A DNA stretch of 61,322 nucleotides, counting the filler, from Piptocephalis cylindrospora (Eukaryota), in assembly GCA_003614145.1 (NCBI GenBank). It is 6 parts of 6 records of this genome, joined end to end, with 100 filler letters (N's around TTAATTAATTAA, not from the genome) between each part and the next. Parts side by side here need not be neighbours in the genome. Positions count along the whole stretch, not along the records: positions 30,822 to 40,959 come from KZ988050.1; 5 more parts are not named here. One strand, given 5' to 3'. The translations under genes were made by a program, and so were the position numbers. Of the stretch, positions 2,481 to 51,269 are shown one piece after another (position 1 is the stretch's first letter; every line of letters starts with the position of its first letter). The notes under the pieces are model-generated. The model did not search any database, was not told where the DNA came from, and was given only the letters and a program-made list of their open reading frames with translations.

Positions 2481-3380
2481 GAGAGTCGGTATTGCTGAGT
2501 CGGTATGCTGAGTATTTGCAGTGAGCGGTAGAAAGAAAGTGGTTCGTTAGGAATAGCTAGAAATGGAAGGAGAGAGGAGGAGGGAGGGAAGGGAAGAAGA
2601 GAAGTAAGAAAAGGGTATAGACTGAGGCTTTATATGCATTCAAGGGTGGTAGTCTTCATATTTTCTCCTTCTAAAGCCGACAGTCTTTAGTCAGCTCAAG
2701 AATGAAGCCTTTGGCAAATACAAGTGAGAATTCAGGGCCCGCCCCATGACACGGACTTGCCGAACACATGTTGGTCTGAAGCACTTCCGACACTGCAGTG
2801 TCTAATGCTCAATGAGGGCATTGATCAATTCATAGTCCGAATCGGTCCGACTGGTATCCGATAGCTGGTCGTCCAATGGTACATCCCTTCCTTCATTCAT
2901 GCTGCAGTCGGACAAGCTGCTGGGGGACCTTCTGGTATCAGACATACCACTAGCCTCGGAGGATGACAGGTAGACGAGCTTGGATGCCATCTTTTATCAA
3001 TTCAGGGAAATAAAAAGACTTTTATCTTCCTCCGCAGGTTATCGTCTATGCTCTTTTCCCTTCCTGGGAGATACCAAGTTTATGAATGGAAAAGAACATA
3101 TATTCCCATCTCTACCCTTTCCGCGACACGTGAGAAATAAATGATCCAGTTTAGATGATGGTATAAATAGAGGAGCCAGATACGTTTTATTAAATGACGA
3201 TTTGGTGAACCGAGCGACAATGCCCTTTTCAATGTAATTATAATGGGTAGAGACTATGGAAGAACAGGAAATAAGGATGACTAGGTCCACCAGATTAGAT
3301 CTCATTGCCCCCGGGAAAAGGATGAATATAATTATGCAGGACGGTCACCAAGCTCCATGAATTACTCTTAATCTCAACCA

Positions 3381-3575
3381 TTAGTGCTTCCCGCTTGCAG
3401 TGGGAGTTTTACTGGACGAGGTAGTGCCCAAAGTCCCGGATAGGTAGATAGGAGCGCCGTTGTTGATTGTGGTTGCCCCAAGATAAGGGTGATAAGTCCA
3501 AGGGGCAGCCTGTACTGCCAGGTCAGTGGACAAGGTAAGTACTAGGGAAAGAAGACAGACAGTGACGGATACCAT
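3381..3575 (-). CDS. Small secreted protein, 64 aa, hypothetical
   Basis: MVSVTVCLLSLVLTLSTDLAVQA|APWTYHPY...: classic signal peptide with a VQA cleavage site and a short mature peptide. Confidence 0.5.
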   Translation of the reverse strand: MVSVTVCLLSLVLTLSTDLAVQAAPWTYHPYLGATTINNGAPIYLSGTLGTTSSSKTPTASGKH

Positions 3576-4714
3576 GCTGAGCGAGTACATCGGGAAAAGG
3601 GGGTCAGATATAGAGCAAAAAGAGGGTCCAAAGGTCAAAGAACGAGTGATGCAAGGTTAATGGATAGTGGTGATTATAGGGTAGTAGGAAAAGGATATAT
3701 GGAGTGTGAGGGAAAAGGGGAATGGAGGGAAGAGAGGAAGGAAAGAAGAAGAGAAAGAAATGGAAAGCGATGAAGCGATGGCTGCATATTTCACAGGATG
3801 GGATCGTCGCGCGCCAAGGCCCTCGAGAGGGACGATGATAGGTAGAGCCTTTGATCAAGGCCCCTCACCCAGAAATAATCGGGCACTTGCCTTACTTGAT
3901 CATTACCTGCTACTCACAGAGTCGTGTTCGTTCTTTCCAAACCTCCTGCTCCTCCCACACCATTCGTTCCGTATTTGCTTGACGTATTCACCAATCCTCA
4001 TCATCGGACTTTACACGAATTGCCCCTCCCACATTGTGAATGGTACCTGTCTTGAGCGGTCCTTACTGAGAGGACCTGCGTGGCCATTGGTGGAGATACC
4101 TAGAACGGCGGTGAACAAACCAATCTTGGATTGATCTAGATTCACAGGGACCATTACATTATTCAAATATCAGCAATTTTTGCCATTTAAACATGATCCA
4201 ATTACCATGATAATGCTGTTATCTTTTTCGCTGAATGCTCTATAAGAGTTTGGTGATAATGCCCAATTGAAGGCTTTTTAACTTCTAAAGCTAAATATAC
4301 CTATTAGGATTGCTGCTTAATTATTGATCATCAGCGACACTTTACTATCATACCTTAAAAAGGGACATTGCAGGCTGGCTTAAGGGCGAATATTACATTT
4401 GAATATCCATCAGCCTATCCTACCTGGGAAAACATAATGGCTTTACCACTACTTAAAACGGAACATTTTATGTAATCGAAGAGAGCATGAACAGTTGCTT
4501 TAGATGACCTCAAGGACATTCAAACTCCGTCTCCTCGTACCACGACGACATATGGACATGCGTATGGAAGAGAGTGCTTTGAAGGAGTGGTTCAAAACAG
4601 CGGACTAGGAATGAAGGCTACTTTCACGCGCACTTTTCTCATCTCTTCCTGTTCTCCGTCCCATCTTTATCCCATCCCCTGCCCCGTTCTTTATCTCACA
4701 ATCTAACCCAATCC

Positions 4715-10208: not shown

Positions 10209-10308
10209 NNNNNNNNNNNNNNNNNNNNNNNNNNNNNNNNNNNNNNNNNNNNTTAATTAATTAANNNNNNNNNNNNNNNNNNNNNNNNNNNNNNNNNNNN
10301 NNNNNNNN
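10209..10308. other. Artificial contig linker (N44-TTAATTAATTAA-N44)
   Basis: Identical 100-bp spacer with stops in all six frames, repeated five times in the window. Confidence 0.98.
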
Positions 10309-13300
10309 TAGAGGCGTGTAAGGTGGTCTGCCGCACCCGGTCATCGCTTTTACCTTCTCTGCTCCCATCGTATGCTAGCATGAAGGGGATATATGTGGAA
10401 ACCCAAGGAAGAGAGCTCATTGCGTCCTTGACTCGTGAGCCCAGTATTCGCTGGATCATGTGTGTGCTACCTGCGCTTCTTCTAGATAAGGACCGGGAAG
10501 TCAAGATGTTATGTAATTCACCTCACCTCTCCATCTTCATTCATTGTGTAAGTGCTTCAAAAATATGCTAAACAATATGCCGATGTGGATGAGGTAGAAT
10601 GCCTTAAAAACTCCCATGACTTTATACTCATCTCAGATGCCTTCCCTTCTCCCTTCAGCTCTGGCACCATTTATCTCACTTACCGGCAGGAAAGTTGATG
10701 GATGAAGCAGTGGCCCTCTTGAGGGATACGGTGGTCAAGACCGATTCCAAGGACATTTTCAATACTCTGATTATTGCTGATATTCATGGTGCCGGCGGGG
10801 AGGATGAGGAAAGCCTCTCTCTTACCCTGAGCCGTTATGAGGCTGTATGGAGGAGGCTTCATGATCCGACGGTCCTATTTGGCCTGGCCATGATTAGTTT
10901 AGTTCAAAAGTTGGATCCCTCCCGGGAATCCGCCTTGGATCGGGAGCTGGTAGGGAGATTTATTGCTTCCAATGAGAAAACCTTTCTCAGCTCCTTCTTC
11001 CGGTACATTGCCCCGCTTTTTCAGAGGTCCACGGATACTCGGGGGAAGGGAAGACGGAGAACAAGCTCTATCTCCAAGTCTCTTGGATCCTACGGGGATG
11101 GAATAGGGGAGTTACTTGAAGAGGGCATGGTAGATGAGGATCGAACGTGCGCCTCCTTGGGTTTACTAGAGAATCTCATTGAAGCTCCGGGCGTAGATGT
11201 CCTGGCATGGATGCGCCGTACCCACCTGACTGACCAAGGTGGTGACACGGCGCTGCGTCTCATATACGCCTTTGCCTCAAGCTATCTCGTGCAGTGGAGA
11301 CCTCCAGCCTCCTCAATCTCACCAGTGAAAGGAGGAATAAATCAAGCATCGGGTGAGCGGCTTCTCTTGGCTTGCTTACACTTTCTCCACCGCTTTGTCA
11401 AGTCCATGACAGTAGCTGAACTTCCCTTGATGCCCCATCTACAAAGGTGCATCCTTACTGCCTTGGCCCAACCCTCCTTGGGACAAGGAGCTGGGGGTTC
11501 GTCGGGCCTTCTAGAGCTTTTACTGGAGAGTCTAGATAATACGGTCCGGCTCTCCCGAGCTCCCACTTCTACAGGCACTGGGTCCTCAAGTAAAGGAGTG
11601 GGTCGTCGTGAGGGGGGTGGTGTCGAGGGGTATCTTACTCACGAAAGAAGTCGGGAGGATGCAATGCGTCGACTGAGGCTACTGCTCGTCAATGCCCTTT
11701 TACATCATCCTGGACATCTCAATCGAGGTCCTGGCCAAGTGTCCGTATGGTTACGAGTGGCCGATCGTCTTTTTGTGCACCTCCACACCGAGTACTCTAT
11801 CACTCAATGCATCATCCCGGTTCTGGGTTCCCTATGCCAAAGCGTCCGGATGGCATGCATGAATATTGAAGATGAGTCCACCCCTATTCCCTCTTCCGAG
11901 AAGGATCCAGGGGAAAATGTCATGGTGGACCTATGGACTTTAGAATTGCGGGTACGCCTTCTCGAGAAGCTCCTGCTCTATTATCTTGAGGTGACAGATG
12001 TGTCGGTGGATGCCGATGCCGTCTCAGATATTTCCTTGAACAGCACAACGGACTTGGAGAGTAAGGAAGAGGAAGAGGGGGAGGCATCGGAGGAAAAGTC
12101 TGGAGGAAGCACGGCTTCAATGGGAACTGGGGGTCTCCTTTCCCTCTTCAGCACATCCAATCCATCCTCCAAGAATGGTCGAGCTACCAATGGCAAGGGA
12201 GGATCTAGGTTACAGGGTAGGGTAACTGTGCAAGAATGGATGATGGAGCAACTCGTCACCATCTTTGCCACCTTGCTCCGAGTGTGCCAAGTGCGTATCC
12301 TACCCCGAAAGGATTGTATGGAGGTCATGAGTGCGCAGCAGGCTCTCACCCATGTCTTTTCTCGTCTTCTGGCTCGATACCGAAAGGCAATCCTTGAGGC
12401 CCTGGTAGAGGTATGGTGCGAGGAGGGTCCATGGTTACAGGCTTGTGATCTTCCTCACCGGGAATGGGAAATGGTGGAGTTGATTGAAGGCTTGGAATAT
12501 CGGGAGGTTATGCTCGCCGTAATGGATCACCCCAAGTCCTCGCCTGATCTAGATCGGACACCGAGAATTCGTCTTCTTGCTCGATTGGTTCGTCACACCC
12601 CGTTGGCCGATCTGTATGCGGTGGTATCGAGTATTGAGGAGTTTTGCCGGTCAGTCGCTGCCGCTTCCTCCAATGCATCCTCCTTGGCCGGGGACGGGAA
12701 TGGGATCAAAACGCTTCTCTCCCAGTTATTGATAGAAACTTGGAAACGAGTCCGGGGTATGACAGTGGAATCCGAATGGAGGTCTCTGCGCGAGAGCATT
12801 TCCGAGGTACGTAGACACCTGCTGATGGACTACTAGGGAATGATTTCATGCTAGGGGATGGATGTATACTAACATGAACTGTACTAACCATTATTTTTAT
12901 AGCTATGTGTGGCCTTGCTGGACAGCATGATTGCCGACTGGGCTGGGGTTATTGGGGATGAAAGGGCCATTGCCAAGGTTCGGGGAGTACCAGAGGATCG
13001 GCAGGTTCTGGAGGAGCTGGGACTTCCTTCGGTCGATTCCTCCTCCGTCCTCCCTGAGGTAGATCTGGTTCGAAGCGTGTGCTTCACCGCTAATGTGACC
13101 TTACCCCAGCTTCCCACCCTTACACTGCCTGAGACCATGCTTTCTCGGCTCACTTCCCGACTCACTACAGTCTTTACTCTCCCCATCCTTCGGGTGGACC
13201 CGGGGAAAAGACCACATCCTCTTTACCTTCTTGGACTTTACCTCCTGGATCGAACAGTACATCAGAGTCTGCCAACGACGGCATGGAAGCGGGAAGTGTG

Positions 13301-20477: not shown

Positions 20478-20577
20478 NNNNNNNNNNNNNNNNNNNNNNN
20501 NNNNNNNNNNNNNNNNNNNNNTTAATTAATTAANNNNNNNNNNNNNNNNNNNNNNNNNNNNNNNNNNNNNNNNNNNN
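20478..20577. other. Artificial contig linker
   Basis: N/TTAATTAATTAA/N spacer. Confidence 0.98.
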
Positions 20578-30721: not shown

Positions 30722-30821
30722 NNNNNNNNNNNNNNNNNNNNNNNNNNNNNNNNNNNNNNNNNNNNTTAATTAATTAANNNNNNNNNNNNNNNNNNNNNNN
30801 NNNNNNNNNNNNNNNNNNNNN
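30722..30821. other. Artificial contig linker
   Basis: N/TTAATTAATTAA/N spacer. Confidence 0.98.
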
Positions 30822-30983
30822 TCAGAGGAAAAAAGGTTGGAAAGAGAAGAAGCGGTAGGAAACATTGGGAAAGAGAGAGAAGAAGGCAGGCTACAGAACG
30901 CACAAAGAATCATTGCGCTGCGCCTTTTATAGAGCGAGCAGCACACATTCAAAAAGGTGTCCCCTATACTAAAGTTCAGCCGG

Positions 30984-32180
30984 CTACATCATCTTCCTCG
31001 CAAATACAGTGTGCTTGTTTGCTCTAAAAAAATAAGTGAACTTGACCCCACATGTATGCTGAGAGGTAGAAGGCGGGATAGGTTCGCATAGAAGAGCCTT
31101 CAAGTTCACTACACCCTCTACTCTTGATGCCCAATGAAGCTTGGAGAAATGTGATGAGTAGGGGAGCAAGCTAGGATAGTGCCCAATAATGGTCGCTGGC
31201 ATCTGGGTGAAGTTGGTGGTAACTGGAGTGGAAGGGTTCAAACAATTGGACAGGATCTGTAATGATGAAAATCATTACAAAAGTTTTCACGAAATTATGA
31301 AAGCTTGCCACAAAGTTTTCATTCCCCGACAGGTCTAGAACTGGCTAGTCTAGAACTACCATCCCATAATCCCTCCTTTCGTATATAAGGAACCCTTCTC
31401 GTCCCCCTTCCCTCAGACTTTGGAATACACATCAAATCTTGTCCCTCTGTTCTTGTTGCCTTGTTACAGGATCAAAGAAAAGATATTGGAGATAGATGTG
31501 TTGAACAGGATCAAAGGTGCTGACGGTGGATGGAATGGGGTGAGCGGATGAATGAAGGGTGAATCCGCATCAGCAGGTGATGACCACCAGTGGCCTACTT
31601 ATAGGTCCGATTCAGTCAGGGAAAGAGTGGGCGGATGGATGTAGACCTGATAATCACCAGCTCAATCCATGGTGATCAAAACTGCTTACATCAGCTAATG
31701 CATTCCTGCCGACACAGGCTCCGTATATCATCAGTGGTTTTCACATGGGCGCTGGCCTTGACGAATATTATTGTTTCATGCGCATTATTATTGTAATTTA
31801 AGGAGAATAGGGAAAGGGTATGATTCCCCCAACAGAGAGATAGTAGTATGTTATGTTGCTGCGCTACGTTCTGTATTTGCACTACCTTACTCTCTAGTTT
31901 ACTTGCAAATATGCCAAGGGTACAGGGCCATCCTCATCTTACTCCCATCTTTCCATCATTGCAGTAGCCAAGGTTAAATGGATAGAGGAGTTGGAGCCTA
32001 GGAAATTTGAGTCAGATAGCAGATAATTACCCACTTTGGTCATCTGACAACCCAGGATAAAGGACATCTTTTCTGCCCGGGATCGGAGAGTGAGGAAGAG
32101 GAATACATCCCTTCCATTCCTGATGGTCACAACGGCCCGGCCAGAGATCCCTTTCGTGACCGCTGGATCAATAGAACTCT
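30984..32180 (-). pseudogene. Highly degenerate Ty3/gypsy pol (RNase H-like) relics
   Basis: Frameshifted minus-strand fragments LHPDASD, ..LKAL..CGVKFTY, LLSLCWG and WIEL..DYQ..I..P resemble RT-RNaseH motifs; interrupted by a solo LTR. Confidence 0.4.
31258..31468 (+). mobile_element. Solo LTR, 211 bp, with 5-bp TSD GGATC
   Basis: TGTAA...TTACA termini, GGATC at 31253-31257 and 31469-31473, internal TATATAA box; near-identical inverted copy at 33255-33465. Confidence 0.9.
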
Positions 32181-33131
32181 CATTGTAATGATGGCATTAT
32201 TACAGGAAAACTCCGAACATGGGGTTCCTCCTTTTTAATCTATCGGGAATACGGGTCCCTTCGATAGATTAAATCAGTCCAATTTCCCCTTTTTCTCTTT
32301 CCTCCCTTTTCTCGTTTTTCGATCTATAAGAGGATACTCTTTTGTCCCCTTTTCGCTAGCATCTTTTCTGCCTCCCCCCTGTCCCCCCCTGTTTCTCTGC
32401 CTGTTTACACTTGTTATATAAAGGTCATCACAGAGCCCTTTTATCGCTCTTTGAGAATTGGCCAACTGAATTGCGCCTCCAATAAACGGTGGCCTAGCGG
32501 ACTAGCCCGGGGATGGGGGGCTATTGTACATTCAAGCAAAAAATACTACTCGGAATTTGATGTTTTAATTTTTCGCACCTCAGCTAAAGGAATAAAAAAG
32601 AACACCACAGCACATTGGAGTAGTCCTCAAGGAAATGGAAAATATTCTTAGGTCAAGCAAATAATCCGACTCGGATTTTTAGTAATTTATTTTTCAACAT
32701 CGGCTAAAAAATGAGGCTATGATGCATTGGAGGGACGAAGACATGGAGTCAGGGATAAAAATTCGAACGGCTCTAAGAAGGCACGAATTGCGTACCAGTG
32801 CCGGGGAAGCATAGAAGTTTTAAGTCGAAGAAAGGAGGGGTGAGGAAGGGGAAAGTAAAAAAAATATTATTTTTTGCGGCGGGGGATTAGCCATGCATAT
32901 CTATCCCCTGTATGCTGGCTCCCATAGTATGGAATAATAATAAATAATATATATAAATATATAAATAAAAAAAGGAAAACATTGCTATCACGCTACGAGG
33001 GCAGTGGCTGGCATAGGTGCCGCAGTAAGTACATGCCATTAAAGGCAATATATGCGCAAGGATAACGCTGTAAAGGATTTACCCCCCATTGTAAGGAGTC
33101 CATCCTCATCATCCCTTCTTCACCCCATACT

Positions 33132-33254
33132 TGTAACAAGGTAAGAGAGAAAAAAATATTTGATATGTGTTCCAAAACCTGAGAGGAAGGGACAAGGAGG
33201 GCGTCTTTTATAGACAAGAGAAAATAATGGGAGAGGGGATGATTCGGGGCAGGC
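33132..33254 (-). mobile_element. Partial diverged LTR of a related family abutting the younger LTR
   Basis: Starts TGTAACAAGG and aligns by eye with the first ~100 bp of 33255-33465 (ATTTGAT.TGT.TTCC.A..CTGA..GGAAGGG...TTTATA.AC). Confidence 0.55.
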
Positions 33255-33465
33255 TGTAACAAGGCAACAAGAACAGAGGGAAAAGATTTGATGTGTATTC
33301 CCAAGTCTGAGGGAAGGGGGACGAGAATGGCCCTTTATATACGAAAGGAGGGATTATGGGATAGTAGTTCTAGACTAGCCATTTCTAGACCTGTCGGGGA
33401 ATGAAAACTTTGTGGCAAGCTTTCATAATTTCGTGAAAACTTTTGTAATGATTTTCATCATTACA
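33255..33465 (-). mobile_element. Second LTR copy (211 bp), inverted relative to 31258-31468, no matching TSD
   Basis: Reverse-complement match to the solo LTR with few substitutions; flanks CAGGC and ACTGG differ. Confidence 0.88.
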
Positions 33466-33467
33466 AC

Positions 33468-34145
33468 TGGGAAGAAAAGCGGGCTGGCCTTCAAAACCAG
33501 AAGGCGGCGGCTGCTGAGCGTCGCATCCTGGCTAGCCGTGCGCGTTCCCGGGAATCTGCCGCCCAGGCCCCTCGGTTCCAGGACCAGGAAGTTCAGGTTG
33601 GCGGAGAATTTGGAGGTCCCCCCGAGCCGGCGGAGACCCCTACCACCGAATCCCGTATCAGGTCCCGTGCAGTCCAGCCAGTGGACCGCTTTGACCCGGA
33701 AAACCACCGGGACGATGGCTCCGATGACGACGAGCCCGAGGAAGAGGAGGAAAGGTCCGCCGAGGAGGACACCATGGACGACGACGACAGGGCATTCATC
33801 CGCGGAGACCTCGACGAAGCCCGTGGAAATGCCCCATACGCCCTTCCCTCCGAGCTCTCCGAATCCTCCGAGTCCGACGGGGAGCGCTCCAACTCCATCG
33901 AGGACGTCGAGATTGACGTCGAGGAGCTCGACCGCGAGCTTGAGGAACTCACCGGCCCCAACACCGGTGAGGGGGACCTCGAGTTGGATGACGAGGTTCC
34001 GTTGAGCGAGGCTGAAGGGAGCCAAGCCGAGGAAGGGGACGAGAGGGGGGAGGAGAGTGGGGAGGAGAGGGAGGAGTGGAGTGGAGGGAGGAAGAGGAAG
34101 CGGGCTGTGGCTGGCCCCAAGAGGGTCCTCCGCAAGCGTGGATAG
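33468..34145 (+). pseudogene. 5'-truncated ORF encoding an acidic low-complexity protein with a basic NLS-like tail
   Basis: Frame is open from the LTR boundary (WEEKRAGLQNQKAAAAERRILASR...) through the D/E-rich region to GGRKRKRAVAGPKRVLRKRG*; no ATG at the 5' end. Confidence 0.55.
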
Positions 34146-34459
34146 GCCCTCGCTAGAGCGGGGTGGGGTGGGGTGGGGTGGGATGGGGTGGGGCCAAGGG
34201 ATCAATATATCCCTTGCTTATACCCTCTGTTTTGTCATTTTTGCCTTGTTTTCACCCTCATCCCTCGTCTCCTTTGCCCACACTCTGATAATATGTGGGT
34301 GGCCTGCCAAGTACACTTTAACCGTTACACAGTGTCTATACCCACCACTACTAATCACAATACAAGTCCTGCATGCATATAAAGTATACGTTATGCTCAT
34401 GGTGAATTCATGCCCAAAATTACTCATAATATTCATTACAATATTCAATATATTCATAA

Positions 34460-34553
34460 ATCCATTTACTATCCATTTGTTATCCATTTACTGTCCATTT
34501 ATTATCCATTTACTGTCCATTTATTATCCATTTATCATCCATTTACTATCCAT
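34460..34553 (+). repeat. 11-bp minisatellite (ATCCATTTACT-like, ~8 copies)
   Basis: Tandem TCCATTT(A/G)(C/T)(T/C)(A/G) units seen directly. Confidence 0.9.
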
Positions 34554-35044
34554 ACCATTATTTATCGACCACAATATCCCTCATTCTCCAATATCACCTT
34601 GCATTGCTCAACCCTCATCCTGAGTTGATTTTCATTGAAAATTGACCCATTTTCCAGCTTGTCCCCCATCCACCCTTAGGTATGGCCCCATACTTTAGTC
34701 AAGTATACACCATATAAGTGCCTTTCTATCCAAGCTGAATACGTCCACATCCCATATCCCCCCACTAGACCATCCCAAAGTCCACCAGGGGGCAAACGAT
34801 ACTTTTGCGGATTTTTAAACGTGTCCGTAACTGTATGAATAGTGGCCCAAGCGTGATGAAATACACACCATTCAACTCGCCTCGTTCCGCTCCCCAAGAT
34901 GGTCTGATCACCAATGTTACACAAGACCTCTCTTTTCTCCAAATAAAATACAAAGTTCATTTTTCGCACTTTTTTACACAAATACCCTACTTTTAAAGCG
35001 CATTTCTGGCGCACCCTCATCCCACCATACCGTCATTTACCATG

Positions 35045-35127
35045 CCACTATATCACCATACCACTATATCACCATACCACTACGTCACCATACCACTACG
35101 TCACCATACCACTACGTCACCATACCA
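35045..35127 (+). repeat. 16-bp minisatellite CCACTA(TA/CG)TCACCATA x5
   Basis: Five near-perfect tandem units. Confidence 0.95.
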
Positions 35128-35339
35128 TAAGTAGCCTCACACTCAACCCATTTGAACTAGACCAAGTGCATACATATCCACTCTACATATACACTTTACA
35201 TGCATTATACATGCACTATACATACGCTATACATACACTTTACATATGCTCTACAGACACTATACAGAGGCTCTACATACGCCCTACAGACACTAGCAGA
35301 TGCTATACAGACACTATACAGACACTATACAATGCATAT

Positions 35340-35638
35340 ACACCACCATCAACAAAGCTCAGCTTTCTCATTTCTGAAGACACTTTTCTTGACCCATCAT
35401 AACCAACCAATATTCCAACCAACCCTCAGCCATTACCAACTCATTATCTCAACCCTAAGCCAACATTTTCAACCCTAGCCAACATTTTCAGCCCTAGCCA
35501 ACATTTTCAACCCTAGCCAACATTTTCAGCCCTAGCCAACGTTTTCAACCCTAAACTTCAAAGTCGAATATCTCGGCCCCAACTCAACCGTATGAAACGG
35601 GAGTTGATCCAAACGGTTCCTATGACTCATGTGACTGC
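35340..35638 (+). repeat. Single copy of the ~320-bp repeat unit, including a 19-bp array (AACCCTAGCCAACATTTTC x5)
   Basis: 35551-35638 nearly matches 40783-40870 (CTAAACTTCAAAGTCGAATATCTCGGCCCCAACTCAACC...CCAAACGGTTCCTATGACTCATGTGACTGC). Confidence 0.9.
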
Positions 35639-36174
35639 TTATTGGTTAGGGTTTAACCCGCTAACCAAATCGATTTGAAACCAAAAAAGTTCAAAATAAA
35701 TCGCCAGTTAAAACGGATGCTTTGGGCGTGGATTGCGGGAGCGGCAGAGGCACCAGGGAGATGATAAAAGAGCACAGGGCGAGGGGAGGGGCGTCTGAAG
35801 TGACCACCAAATTTTGGTCGAGCACAGACCATGTTTTTGACCAATGAAAGTCGGTGAAAGTCGGGAAATATTGTAACCGTCAAAAAGGCCCGGGAATGCA
35901 ATGCACTTGGTCTTGTTTAGATTGATTGGTTCATTAAAGAAATATTACCGACTATTGATCAGTATGTAATTTTTCCAAGTTGGGTCAGACTTTTTTTGGA
36001 CGGAAAGTACTTGGCCGTGTCCAGAAGGCGCTGCAGCAACCTATGGAAAAGTACAAATGCTTATTAAGATAATAATGAGGATGCTTCAGGTATAAATTCC
36101 AATTGATATATTTTTTGATTTTCATCCCACTTTTTAATAATAGGATTTTTAGTATTTCTCTGCCACCCGTACTC

Positions 36175-38490
36175 TTAATGTGGCCGAATATCAATGTATA
36201 GGTTCTTGTCCTTCTTGGATGCAAAGGCATCCCCGTACCAGGATCGGACCATGCAGTCAAACTTGGAGAACTCAACCCACAGCGTATCCTGGTATGTTTG
36301 GTAGGTCTGCTGCTCCAAGCCCTGGTAGTGCTCCAGCAGGGTGTCTCGATAGGCCAGGTAGGCTGGATAGTACTTGACCTTCTTCCACATTGGCTTCTCA
36401 CTGACATTTGGGGCGAGGATGCCAGCCTGGGGGAACACATGCTCAAAAAGGTCCCTCCAATTGCTGATCTTGCGGCGGTTACTGATCGGCCTCTCCAGTC
36501 TGCGAGGGATAGACAACCTGACTTGGGCCAGGGACCATTCCTTCATCGGCCTGCCAGCCTGATAGTTCCGAGTCATTTCCACCAAGTCCACCCGAAGCAG
36601 TTCAATGACATACTGGGCCAGCTGGACAGGGTCCTCGACCACCAAATCCTCCTCCCCTGCCACCCTGTCCACCCCCTCCAGTAGCCTTCTCCTAGATTCC
36701 TCCTCATCCATAGCCACCCCCAGTCCATCCTCTGTGTCGGCCATTGTCTCAGTGTGGTCCTGGAGGACCCGAGAGCCCAGGCCTTCAAGAGACGCCTGGG
36801 CACCCTCCCAGTCCACCCGATTTCGGGGAAGGTACGGCCTATTATACCGCCGCAATGCCCAACCCAACCCGAGGGATTGGTGATCCTCTCGATTCAAGTG
36901 TCCAAAAACGGCCTTTCGGCACCGGGAATAGTACACCCCCCGGAGGTAGCCGCGGAACATCCCAGCCAGCATGTCCATGAACGCCTCCCTCCTCTTCCCA
37001 ATCCGACCATGGCTTTCCAGGATCCCCTCATCAACCCGTCGGGTCCCCTCCTGAACCAGCCAGATACTAGCGGCCTTGAATCGTGCCATATCCAAGGATC
37101 CTACTTGGTAAAAATGGTCTCTCGGATTCTTGGCCATGATCTCCATCGCGTCCACCTCCACCCCTACCACCATCTCGAAATCTCTGCCTGACACCCGGAT
37201 CTCCCGCCTTGCCGCCCAAGATATCTTCCCCGACTCTACCACCCCGTCCATTACTACCTCCGAGAGCCTCTTGAACTTCCCCGTCCCCCACCTCATATCC
37301 TTGCCCCGAAGCCTCTCCAATGGATGATCCCTGTTCCCCGTCGTTGCCATCTTGTCCACATGGTACATCTGCAGGTATGACACCCGAGGCACCCCAATAC
37401 CAAAGTTCACCACATCCTTGCCGTACCCCTCCACCGTCCGCCCGGCCACGTCATGCATCAACCAGTACTCGTGGAACCTAACCGGCCCTTCCACCGTGGG
37501 ATCCTCCCTTTCCTGGTTCCGCTTCCATAAAACCTGCGTCGGTCCACACATCTCTCGCGTCGCCCACTCTGGGAAAAATTCAAATCCCACATCCATCTGT
37601 ATCCGATGATAAACCCTTCCTAGTTCGAACATGGAGAGATGCTCCCGGAGTACTTTATCCCTCCACTGCACCACCTCCTCACCCTCGTCCCCATCCAACT
37701 GCCACAGTGGAATTGTCGTACAACCCTTGATGCCCTTGCATGACACATGAAAGAACATGTCCCCAAAGCGCTCCTCCAAGTACTCCGTATCCCTCACCAC
37801 CACCCTGATCGCACGTACTACCTCCGTGAACTCCCCCGCCTGAAGGTCCATCCCCACTTTGGCCGTCTTCCGGAAGTCTGCCGCGTTCCTCCGTGATCCT
37901 CTCATATATTGGATCCTCTGTGGATGCAGTACACGTCTCATTGCCTCCAGTACCACATGGTCATACCACACGTCCAGCTCCGGCCCGCTCATGAACCCAT
38001 TGCCATGCGTGTGGAAGGCTGATCCAAGAGATGGGAACACTGCATGCACCGTTACCCAGCTATTTCCCTCCCCGAACAGGCAATGCGGGGTCCGGGCAAG
38101 AGCAATTGGCTGGCCCCTAAACGGCGTCTGGACGTACAAATGGCTCCCCGACATATTGTAGAACTGGCCAGGGTTTGGGTAAATCCGGATCGGTCCTCGA
38201 GCCTCCAGCTCCATGGCCGAGAACATGATCGAGTCCACATCTGCATAACATTCCACCCCCGCTTGCATCGGCACCGATTCCGACATCACCTCCGTCCTCC
38301 TGGCCTCCTCACCCGCCTTTCCCCCATACACTGCCTTCTCCACGTCGGTGCATCCCACCACACGCGCAGTCCCCTGTTCAAACTTAAACACCGACAGGAA
38401 TTGATCCATATCCTGACGGTACACTGGCATTGCATTTCTCACCAAGGCCCTCTGGGGTACTGGGTGAGGAGCATTCATTTGACGGAACAT
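36175..38490 (-). CDS. Uncharacterised 771-aa protein, candidate mobile-element replication/transposition protein
   Basis: Long intact ORF, GC-richer than its flanks, with globular composition. TATAAAA at 38799-38805 and an apparent 5'-UTR GT-AG intron (~38507-38575). Function is not assignable with certainty. Confidence 0.8.
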   Translation of the reverse strand: MFRQMNAPHPVPQRALVRNAMPVYRQDMDQFLSVFKFEQGTARVVGCTDVEKAVYGGKAGEEARRTEVMSESVPMQAGVECYADVDSIMFSAMELEARGPIRIYPNPGQFYNMSGSHLYVQTPFRGQPIALARTPHCLFGEGNSWVTVHAVFPSLGSAFHTHGNGFMSGPELDVWYDHVVLEAMRRVLHPQRIQYMRGSRRNAADFRKTAKVGMDLQAGEFTEVVRAIRVVVRDTEYLEERFGDMFFHVSCKGIKGCTTIPLWQLDGDEGEEVVQWRDKVLREHLSMFELGRVYHRIQMDVGFEFFPEWATREMCGPTQVLWKRNQEREDPTVEGPVRFHEYWLMHDVAGRTVEGYGKDVVNFGIGVPRVSYLQMYHVDKMATTGNRDHPLERLRGKDMRWGTGKFKRLSEVVMDGVVESGKISWAARREIRVSGRDFEMVVGVEVDAMEIMAKNPRDHFYQVGSLDMARFKAASIWLVQEGTRRVDEGILESHGRIGKRREAFMDMLAGMFRGYLRGVYYSRCRKAVFGHLNREDHQSLGLGWALRRYNRPYLPRNRVDWEGAQASLEGLGSRVLQDHTETMADTEDGLGVAMDEEESRRRLLEGVDRVAGEEDLVVEDPVQLAQYVIELLRVDLVEMTRNYQAGRPMKEWSLAQVRLSIPRRLERPISNRRKISNWRDLFEHVFPQAGILAPNVSEKPMWKKVKYYPAYLAYRDTLLEHYQGLEQQTYQTYQDTLWVEFSKFDCMVRSWYGDAFASKKDKNLYIDIRPH

Positions 38491-39399
38491 CTTTGGCCGT
38501 TCAACACTACTACTATTATTAGAGGTGGGGAGAATTAATTGTGCCTTTATCCCTTCCCTCCAAGTAACCGCTTACCTTGTTCAATATGGATGGGGTAGAG
38601 TGGTAATAATGATGATTAGTGGTCGATGGTTCGATGGTTATTCGAGGATTTGGCTGGGGTGCGGAGTTGACCTTTTTATGGTGGGTTGACTGTGGTAGGT
38701 GTGCGCGGCTGAATGTGCGGAGTGTTGAGAAAAGTGGAGTGGTAAGGAAGAAAGAGTATTTCTGCCGAACTGGTACGAGAGTCTGTGGAAACTCCCTCTT
38801 TTATACCCCTCCCTTGCCACACTTTTTCCTTTCCGCACCCTTTTTCCTTAAAACATTTCATTTTATGAATGGTTTGTTCATGTATATTTCCACTCTTGTT
38901 CCAATCATTCATCGCTTCAATAATATTTCCACTTTCCTAAAATACCGTATTCTCCCTCAGTTCCCTGGACCTTTGTGAATATTCACATCAACATGCCCGA
39001 GGAACACACGAATCTGCCGGTATTATCTGAGCGCTCTCTATCCTATGGCGATATCCTATTCTATTCTATTCTATTCATTCTATACAATCGCATATTTACT
39101 CTGAGCACTTGCACCTCTATTCTTTTCCATCCTTCCACCTCCATCCCCATCCTGAACCTGGCCCGATTTGTCATTTTATCTCCTTCATGCTCCCTCCAGC
39201 CCTACCGTATCAAACATGTCCCGCTTTCTTCAAAATATCCACCATTTTATACAAGAGTCAGTAGACATATTGCACACTGCCTTGGGGGGCTTTATGGTTC
39301 TCGGATGTAAGTAGTGAAATGACCATTCTTCCAGGTACTCTCTCGTATCTTTCGTACCTATCCATATCCTATCCAGGCCCACCCATGCATAATAATAGT

Positions 39400-40870
39400 A
39401 AAATATAATACATTATCTCCAATAAAAGTTTATTCTTTCTCATTTTTGAAGGCACTTTTCTTGAGCAGGGCTACCCAACATCAGAACCATGATACCCGCC
39501 AACATCTCAATCTTTGAACTTCAAAGTTTAATATCTCACCTCAGACTTGATCATATGGAATGGGAGTTGGGTGAGGACAATTGCATGGCTCCAGAGGGTG
39601 CTGTCATTATCTAAATAGAGAGTAGTAGGATAACCATACAGATACATTAAGACATGCACTGATATACCCTTCTATATTCTCCCAAGTCCACCCATATTTT
39701 ATGACATATACTATCTCCAATAAAGTTGACTTTTTCTCATTTTAACGGACCTTTATTTGAGCACGGCTAAGCCAACATCCCAACCCACATGCTCAAGCTA
39801 CATGCACAACCCTAACCTTTAGAGTCATATATCTCAGCCCAAACTCGACCGTTTTCAACGGGAGATGACTGAGAACACCCCTATGGCTGCAAGGAATGTG
39901 GTGATTGCCTCGAAATAAAACACTATTATACCGATACTGACACATTGGATTTTAGACAGTATATTCTTCAGTCTTCTTCCAAGTCAACACCTATATAATA
40001 TGTATATTCTATCTTCACAAAGTTGACTTTTTTCATAACTTTATTTTGAGTAGGGCTAACCAACCTCCCAATCCACATTCCCAACCCACATTCTCAACCC
40101 TCAGCCAATATTTTCAGCCCTAAGCCAACATTATCAACCCTAAACTTCAAAGTCGAATATCTCGGCTCAAACTCAACCATATTCAACGGGAGTGGGTGAA
40201 AATTAATGATATAGGCTCAAAAAGCACTGTGATGGTTGATTTTAGAACACTAAGGAAAGAATACAGGTATGCAAAATATTACACAAAGTATCCCCAAATA
40301 AACATCCCTCCACCCATATATCCTATACATACTCTACCTTCAACAAAGCTCCTCTTTTCCAATCCTTGGACATTTTTTGATCTATCGTGATGCATTTAAC
40401 CAACACCCCATCCAATATTGCTACCCTTAAATTTCAAAGTTGAATATCTCGGCCTCCACTTGACCATTTTCAACGGGAGATGACTGAGAATGCCCCTATG
40501 GTTGCAAGGGATGTTGTGATTGCCTCGAAATAAAACACTAGGATAACGATACCGACACATTGGATTTTACACAATATATTCTTCAATCTTCTTCCAAGTC
40601 TACCCATATATACTATACAAATAGTATATCTAGAAAAGATGACATTTTCATGCTTTCCATGATCTTTTTTTAAGTAGGCCTAACCAACCTCCCAACCCAC
40701 TTTCTCAACCCTAGCCAACATTTTCAGCCCTAAGCCAACATTTTCAACCCACATTCTCAACCCTAAGGCAACATTCTCAACCCTAAACTTCAAAGTCGAA
40801 TATCTCGGCCCCAACTCAACCATATCCAACGGGAGTTGGTCCAAACGGTTCCTATGACTCATGTGACTGC
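39400..40870 (+). repeat. Tandem array of ~290-360-bp degenerate units (5 copies)
   Basis: Core AACTTCAAAGTCGAATATCTC...GGGAG recurs at ~39516, 39812, 40141, 40427 and 40784. Confidence 0.88.
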
Positions 40871-40959
40871 AGTGGCTATTTATTCTAAGATACTAGGACA
40901 TGGTCAGAAATATGCAAGGTATTATTATTACTACTTGGAATATTCTCCCTTTTATTTTC

Positions 40960-41059
40960 NNNNNNNNNNNNNNNNNNNNNNNNNNNNNNNNNNNNNNNNN
41001 NNNTTAATTAATTAANNNNNNNNNNNNNNNNNNNNNNNNNNNNNNNNNNNNNNNNNNNN
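40960..41059. other. Artificial contig linker
   Basis: N/TTAATTAATTAA/N spacer. Confidence 0.98.
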
Positions 41060-51169: not shown

Positions 51170-51269
51170 NNNNNNNNNNNNNNNNNNNNNNNNNNNNNNN
51201 NNNNNNNNNNNNNTTAATTAATTAANNNNNNNNNNNNNNNNNNNNNNNNNNNNNNNNNNNNNNNNNNNN
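51170..51269. other. Artificial contig linker
   Basis: N/TTAATTAATTAA/N spacer. Confidence 0.98.

Follow-up and report, generated by a model that had tools for sequence, protein, structure and literature searches.

The analysed window is a 61,322-base stretch of DNA made up of six contigs of ~10 kb each from the Piptocephalis cylindrospora assembly GCA_003614145.1. One of these contigs (KZ988050.1, window positions 30822-40959, 10,138 bases) carries, at 36175-38490 on the minus strand, an open reading frame (ORF) that runs open throughout its 771 codons. We read this ORF as an intact gene, present in one copy, that belongs to a small family of fungal proteins. Its N-terminal ~380 residues are predicted to have the two-lobed, TATA-binding protein (TBP)-like fold of Rep_trans replication initiators, and the protein may well nick and rejoin DNA via Tyr376 (Y376). 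For this reading as a whole, which leans on a structural model, we judge the case to be evenly balanced. A preliminary description of the locus had recognised the intact 771-residue ORF correctly and had proposed, as a hypothesis, that it is the initiator gene of a mobile element of rolling-circle type.

Conserved residues and predicted fold

The closest structural comparison is with the Rep_trans initiators and MOB_T relaxases (PF02486; the pT181-type RepC/RepD proteins and RepSTK1; PDB entries 4CWC, 4CWE and 4CIJ). These are described, in the excerpts of the literature to which our citations refer throughout, as dimers with a TBP-like fold, a catalytic Tyr on a β-strand, and a metal site formed by D46, D142 and E214 (PMC5714925; PMC4797284; PMC13107129). 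Residues R140, D142, A144, D146, R212 and E214 are reported to be strictly conserved around Y191 (PMC4797284), and the strand location of the tyrosine distinguishes these proteins from HUH enzymes, in which it lies on a helix (PMC5714925; PMC4797284). The fungal gene has the following features, given by window position.

36175-38490, minus strand: intact ORF of 771 amino acids (aa) plus stop codon, collinear with homologues over 96% of its length at 31-35% identity
37126-38256, minus strand: two-lobed TBP-like domain resembling Rep_trans, residues 79-455, predicted from the modelled structure
38233-38235, minus strand: codon of D86 in the DxDS motif (D84 codon at 38239-38241), nearly invariant in 23 aligned sequences, both Asp residues on predicted β-strand 79-92; candidate equivalent of Rep_trans D46
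37591-37593, minus strand: codon of D300 in D-x-G/A-x-E/D, invariant in the 23, on predicted β-strand 298-307; candidate equivalent of Rep_trans D142-x-A144-x-D146
37363-37365, minus strand: codon of Y376 in Q-x-Y-x-x-D/E-K (Q374, Y376 and K380 invariant in the 23), on predicted β-strand 370-377; candidate catalytic tyrosine
37201-37203, minus strand: codon of E430 in R428-x-E430-x-R432, invariant in the 23, lying together with both arginines on predicted β-strand 427-434; candidate equivalent of Rep_trans R212-x-E214
36178-37098, minus strand: C-terminal region, residues 465-771, mostly α-helical by model secondary structure, with conserved columns
38513-38575, minus strand: candidate intron of 63 bases (GTAAGC...AATAG) in the 5' untranslated region, upstream of the ATG, from reading the sequence
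38798-38805, minus strand: TATAAAAG string ~310 bases upstream of the ATG, likewise read as a candidate TATA box

Upstream of the ATG, none of three reading frames shows a coding exon.

Alignment of the 23 family sequences, distant members included, leaves F247, K255, D300, G350, Q374, Y376, K380, R428, E430 and R432 invariant. Near-invariance extends to D84, D86, S87, P107, H117, P135 and further positions, residue 304 is E or D in the majority of the sequences but not in every one, and conserved C-terminal columns include A473, W477, G482, G514, G518, G530 and D635. The preliminary description had picked out RIQMDVGFE (residues 296-304), YLQMYHVDK (372-380) and ARREIRV (427-433) and had numbered D300, E304, Y376, K380, R428, E430 and R432 correctly; the residues that it singled out for a conservation check, D300, Y376 and E430, are indeed invariant, together with K380, R428 and R432. 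Along the protein, the motifs run D-x-D-S, D300-x-G/A-x-E/D, Q-x-Y376-x-x-D/E-K and R428-x-E430-x-R. Judged from sequence motifs, this is the order found in Rep_trans, namely Asp, an Asp-x-Ala-x-Asp-like strand, the Tyr strand and an Arg-x-Glu strand.

AlphaFold2, supplied with the family alignment, returns confident models, with a predicted local distance difference test score (pLDDT) of 83.5 and a predicted template modelling score (pTM) of 0.69 for the whole protein, and 85.1 and 0.85, respectively, for residues 70-465. Residues 79-464 of the model are α+β and the remainder is helical. VIA-align, a structure search independent of Foldseek that covers 48,161 representative chains, places Rep_trans initiators at ranks 1 and 2 for the residue 70-465 model. 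With the whole model, the two Rep_trans representatives come 10th and 17th, and no alignments are longer than theirs (173 and 180 residues). Single-lobe matches extend over only ~90-110 residues, versus 170-180 for Rep_trans. Foldseek itself lists Rep_trans entries both for the whole model (ranks 3, 6 and 15) and for the domain (ranks 4, 5 and 11), with TM-scores of 0.22-0.27 that are the highest among the matches listed, and a second structural look at its candidates brings all three Rep_trans PDB entries to the top. A search of BFVD has an Inoviridae protein of 303 aa at rank 2. The helical C-terminal region finds generic helical-bundle matches only. As far as the model goes, then, Rep_trans structures are the nearest solved folds, and the domain is predicted to have a two-lobed TBP-like catalytic fold of the same type. 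The Rep_trans idea could have failed in the VIA-align comparison, and at the fold level it emerges strengthened, to a point at which we would give about even weight to the enzyme hypothesis.

The resemblance extends to the disposition of the conserved residues. In both systems an invariant Tyr occupies a β-strand (here by model) of a two-lobed TBP-like sheet (here predicted), the strand that opens each lobe bears acidic residues, and an R-x-E strand follows later, in the same order. D300-x-G/A-x-E/D thus resembles D142-x-A144-x-D146, and R428-x-E430 resembles R212-x-E214 (PMC4797284, Carr 2016). The structural alignment begins at model residue 79 and RepDE chain residue 39, which would set D86 opposite RepDE D46 if the alignment is ungapped there. 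On the model, D300, E430 and Y376 are likewise putative counterparts of RepDE D142, E214 and Y191. In the mechanism that we propose, Y376 would nick and rejoin DNA via a 5'-phosphotyrosyl intermediate, Asp86 (or Asp84), Asp300 and Glu430 would hold a divalent metal ion, and R428, R432, K380 and K255 would hold DNA phosphates. The helical C-terminal half might serve in DNA recognition or in recruitment of a partner.

Weighing the Rep_trans relationship

A number of results weigh against kinship with Rep_trans, most of them at the level of sequence. PF02486 has no match in the family proteins scanned, although the positive control, pT181 RepC, scores 36.5 bits. Comparison by hhalign of the family with a reference alignment of 10 Rep_trans sequences (RepC-type proteins, plus Rep genes taken from seven plasmid records) gives a probability of 0.3% (E 0.18). 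The initiator relationship put forward in the preliminary description, partly supported by the nearest fold and by the invariant residues on predicted strands, finds no support at the level of profiles. All five contiguous sub-blocks remain at ≤0.3%, none of them in the proposed motif register. A collinear-chain test is not significant, with the true motif order 90th of 720 permutations, and the best collinear chain omits Y376 and E430. The tyrosine motif is Y-x-x-x-K instead of Y-x-K, the motif I arginine expected two residues before D300 is missing, and ~145 extra residues separate the lobes. Pfam returns no match for the 15 family proteins scanned and, for the window's protein, 0 families even at E≤10, in agreement with the earlier statement that no reverse transcriptase (RT), DDE, tyrosine-recombinase or HUH motif is recognisable; NCBIfam matches neither this protein nor its homologue P0002. 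Foldseek has 0 matches at E≤1e-3 in PDB and BFVD, and its first three ranks for the domain are PP2C/SpoIIE phosphatases. Inverted repeats of ≥10 bases spaced by ≤60 bases, sought as candidates for a hairpin origin, do not occur in 35600-36200, and the two in 38480-39420 are weak. A sliding-window profile comparison is more favorable: for five of the six Rep_trans motifs, the proposed sites rank 1st, 2nd, 3rd, 3rd and 3rd-5th of ~763 windows, motif I having its best window at D300 (z 5.1).

The Foldseek ranking raises the question of a divergent metal-dependent phosphatase of PP2C/SpoIIE type. Its three leading domain matches have E values of 0.12-0.15, and among the many PP2C/SpoIIE chains that Foldseek lists are several in the whole-model and BFVD lists, but their TM-scores are 0.09-0.15 (0.16 at most) with root-mean-square deviations near 20, and there is no Pfam PP2C match. 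No PP2C chain is among the best 50 matches of either the VIA search or the second structural look, and on the VIA results we rejected this assignment, which we regard as having a negligible chance of being correct.

Beyond the motif differences, the fungal protein departs from Rep_trans in having no detectable sequence or profile similarity, in its length (771 versus ~310 aa), and in carrying a ~300-residue helical C-terminus in place of a small DNA-binding domain. It is also encoded by a eukaryotic, nuclear-type gene at which no origin hairpin was found. RepSTK1 and RepDE themselves are only 13% identical (PMC4797284), and there is a precedent in archaeal Rep-Arvir, which is tied to Rep_trans at the structural level only (PMC13107129). 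The Rep-Arvir proteins (DUF7845, PF25227; archaeal viruses and plasmids) offer a second point of comparison: they too have a TBP fold whose kinship with Rep_trans shows only in structure, and they conserve a Tyr and acidic residues although the surrounding motifs diverge (PMC13107129); their central winged helix-turn-helix (wHTH) domain and adjoining conserved hairpin origin are not seen at the fungal gene. Pfam scans of the family proteins gave no DUF7845 match, the presence of that model in the Pfam copy used being unchecked. TBP itself is non-catalytic and has neither the invariant Asp/Tyr/Glu/Arg set nor the additional domains of the fungal protein.

The family to which the protein belongs is small. 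An exhaustive HMMER search of 1,835,955,588 representatives retrieves 21 proteins at E≤1e-3, of which 13 reach E≤1e-30, and all named members are annotated "hypothetical protein". At least eight come from P. cylindrospora and five from a metagenome-assembled genome (MAG) of P. tieghemiana; more distant members belong to Coemansia spp., the agaric Dendrothele bispora and uncultured eukaryotes. A profile built from the 13 closest sequences recovers all 8 of the distant ones that were tested (E 3e-19 to 3e-55). The paralogues are 29-51% identical to each other, the window's protein being the most divergent (29-34%), and nothing among the 1.84 billion representatives comes closer to it than 34-35% identity. 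A maximum-likelihood tree of 18 sequences puts it inside a Piptocephalis-type clade (support 97/96) on a long branch, with no close sister, a position that points to a probable zoopagomycete of this lineage as its source. Scans of metagenome, viral and prokaryote contig collections with the family alignment detect no relative, nor does tblastn of the domain match plasmids or phages at E≤1. A PDB sequence search with the window's protein gave nothing usable, and a word-indexed homologue search found P0002 only, the alignment query adding nothing further. The ESM Atlas contains the protein with no feature hits; its model there has a pLDDT of 0.28, and because it is so poor the structural rows of the Atlas are meaningless. 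The overall pattern is one of rarity and patchiness across distant fungi, with many diverged intact paralogues and some fragments per genome, which suits an old selfish or domesticated lineage and also a fast-evolving host family.

A distant member on metagenome contig L011 (1-5679, 5.7 kb) differs in architecture and has ~400 extra N-terminal residues without a Pfam domain and a stop after the R-x-E-x-R strand, beyond which a 370-aa ORF (3022-4134) looks like a continuation; upstream, a 291-base tandem duplication lies inside an acidic ORF. For the ~400 additional N-terminal residues of the distant metagenome homologue P0028, a possible likeness to a ubiquitin-type cysteine protease was considered and set aside, Pfam lending it no support.

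These data bear directly on whether the protein is instead a lineage-restricted host protein with a common TBP-like α+β arrangement and some other role, be it the binding of DNA or a ligand without catalysis or the activity of an unrelated kind of enzyme, its resemblance to Rep_trans being convergent or generic. The missing sequence-level link fits such a protein, as do the age and intactness of the paralogues and the location of those of P. tieghemiana on contigs of 37-110 kb, like ordinary genes. A generic arrangement accounts less well for the Rep_trans chains heading two VIA lists and giving the longest alignments. Moreover, the invariant Asp, Asp, Tyr, Lys, Arg, Glu and Arg residues, spread over successive predicted strands, resemble an active site and not a plain binding surface, and a rare, patchy family with many paralogues per genome would be unusual for a housekeeping gene. 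On balance we consider the host-protein explanation unlikely, albeit one that deserves serious weight.

If the protein is indeed a nicking enzyme of Rep_trans type, it could be the first eukaryotic lineage among tyrosine endonucleases with a TBP fold, which bacteria have as Rep_trans and archaea as Rep-Arvir. It might then be the enzyme of a fungal rolling-circle replicon or transposon belonging to a class not so far recognised, or a domesticated descendant of such an enzyme, surviving as diverged zoopagomycete paralogues; we offer this wider proposal tentatively, with rather less than even confidence. Rep_trans proteins "appear to be restricted to bacteria" according to excerpts of two reports (PMC13107129; PMC13595969). 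The parts of the literature on Rep_trans with eukaryotes or fungi, and on Rep-Arvir, that were available yielded no eukaryotic cellular or fungal Rep_trans-like family, and the papers on Rep_trans with fungi concern bacterial topics by title. Were the proposal true, this would be the first Rep_trans-like family in eukaryotes, and a second, non-HUH rolling-circle chemistry would extend to each of the three domains of life. A fungal replicon, transposon or domesticated nickase of an unknown kind would then be indicated as well, and such enzymes could act as sequence-specific covalent DNA-protein linkers. To our knowledge, tyrosine rolling-circle chemistry is established in eukaryotes only for Helitrons and other HUH elements. 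Helitron-type enzymes carry their tyrosine on a helix of an HUH fold and are fused to a helicase. In contrast, Pfam finds no HUH or helicase domain in the fungal protein, and the fold search returns a TBP-like rather than an RNA recognition motif (RRM)-like arrangement.

Satellite flanks and the question of mobility

The preliminary description proposed an active rolling-circle-type element of ~5.5 kb, its ends formed by the repeats at 35551-35638 and 40783-40870, that is mobilised by the encoded initiator. The surroundings of the gene resolve into three segments, none assigned to a strand.

35340-35653: partial unit of a ~300-bp satellite, with 19-bp sub-repeats at 35449-35553
35654-39371: low-copy segment bearing the gene, between satellite units; satellite homology stops at 35638/35653 and restarts at ~39372
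39372-40959: tandem satellite array of about five ~300-bp units, reaching the contig end; units 60-82% alike, k-mer depth up to ~1,660

Between the two stretches, 84 of 88 bases agree, within a broader match of 89% over 181 bases. The similarity noted earlier is therefore genuine, but the repeats do not form a pair: about five units stand on one side, running off the contig end, and one partial unit stands on the other. Logan contigs from four runs of the same organism (X1-X4) were aligned to the region. A single X1 contig spans 35781-39540 at a depth of 44.8 with 0 differences, whereas satellite units in X1 reach k-mer depths of ~1,000-1,660, although k-mer depth is not equivalent to copy number. 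Several satellite pieces run on into unrelated sequence. Because of this contrast in depth and these variant continuations, the repeats are multi-copy satellite; the direct repeats flanking the gene belong to a common tandem array and are not element termini.

One contig links 40959 back to 35364, as would be expected of a circle. It has a depth of 1,008 and 4 mismatches in 94 bases, and the joint is for these reasons a unit-to-unit junction within the satellite, not a circle. The left flank ends ~78 unit bases short of where the right flank resumes; because these bases are missing and the flanks are not contiguous within the unit, there is neither a clean insertion nor a target-site duplication. 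The search for further copies with shared boundaries also came out against mobility, the gene segment being matched only once at ≥90% likeness in X1, with 0 relatives of the gene on the other five contigs of the window. No contig of the four runs bridges across the locus to define an empty site. In runs X2, X3 and X4, cover is confined to parts of the repeats and to 39093-40959, and for that reason its absence over the gene shows nothing.

Codon use is atypical, which we treat as no more than a hint. Third codon positions of the gene are G-rich (G3 0.47, C3 0.22), unlike most other ORFs of the window, and its relative synonymous codon usage (RSCU) correlates at 0.28 with seven of these, versus 0.33-0.86 among them. 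The local GC skew at the gene is -0.27 on the plus strand, and G3 exceeds C3 in some other window ORFs as well. This deviation, the intactness of the gene, the near-identity of the 88-base stretches, the joint between 40959 and 35364, and the multicopy, patchy character of the family can all be cited in favor of an active element. Against it stand the satellite nature of the repeats and of the joint, the single gene copy, the failure to find a hairpin, and a closest relative anywhere that is only 34-35% identical. The locus carries no marks of mobile-element ends, and, with neither copies, termini nor a circle and with family members that are old, diverged paralogues (29-51% identity), the mobile-element idea is unsupported; we consider it very improbable. 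The gene is better described as an intact single-copy member of its family, with the putative enzymatic role discussed above.

Other features of the contig and window

The contig ends at 40959, and bases to the right of that position are therefore no genomic neighbor of the gene. N44-TTAATTAATTAA-N44 linkers separate the contigs at 10209-10308, 20478-20577, 30722-30821, 40960-41059 and 51170-51269. On the other five contigs the genes are of ordinary eukaryotic kinds (RhoGEF, aldehyde dehydrogenase, DnaJ, protein kinases, homocysteine S-methyltransferase), and one of these contigs also has a 738-aa open frame at 10620-12833 (plus strand) with no Pfam match.

On the gene-bearing contig, minisatellites at 34460-34553, 35039-35127, 35189-35331 and 35449-35553, with periods of 11, 16, 11 and 19, lie just to the left of the partial satellite unit. 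CCCTAG or CCCTAA occurs within the sub-repeats of 19-20 bp; a search for a telomere array found none, only isolated CCCTAA/TTAGGG hexamers within satellite units. Upstream of the gene, a (TATTC)n microsatellite occupies 39047-39088. Contigs from two other runs start directly after it, at 39093, and for this reason it is probably an assembly break and not a biological boundary. An open frame at 33429-34142 (plus strand) encodes 238 aa rich in Asp, Glu and Ser, without a Pfam match; long frames overlap there on both strands, and it is probably low-complexity sequence, not a gene. Farther to the left, an inverted repeat pairs 31258-31469 with 33254-33465 (212 bases per arm, 96% identical) around an interior of 1,784 bases with a GC content of 43.5% and no convincing ORF, and the structure as a whole (31258-33465) could be a foldback or non-autonomous element.

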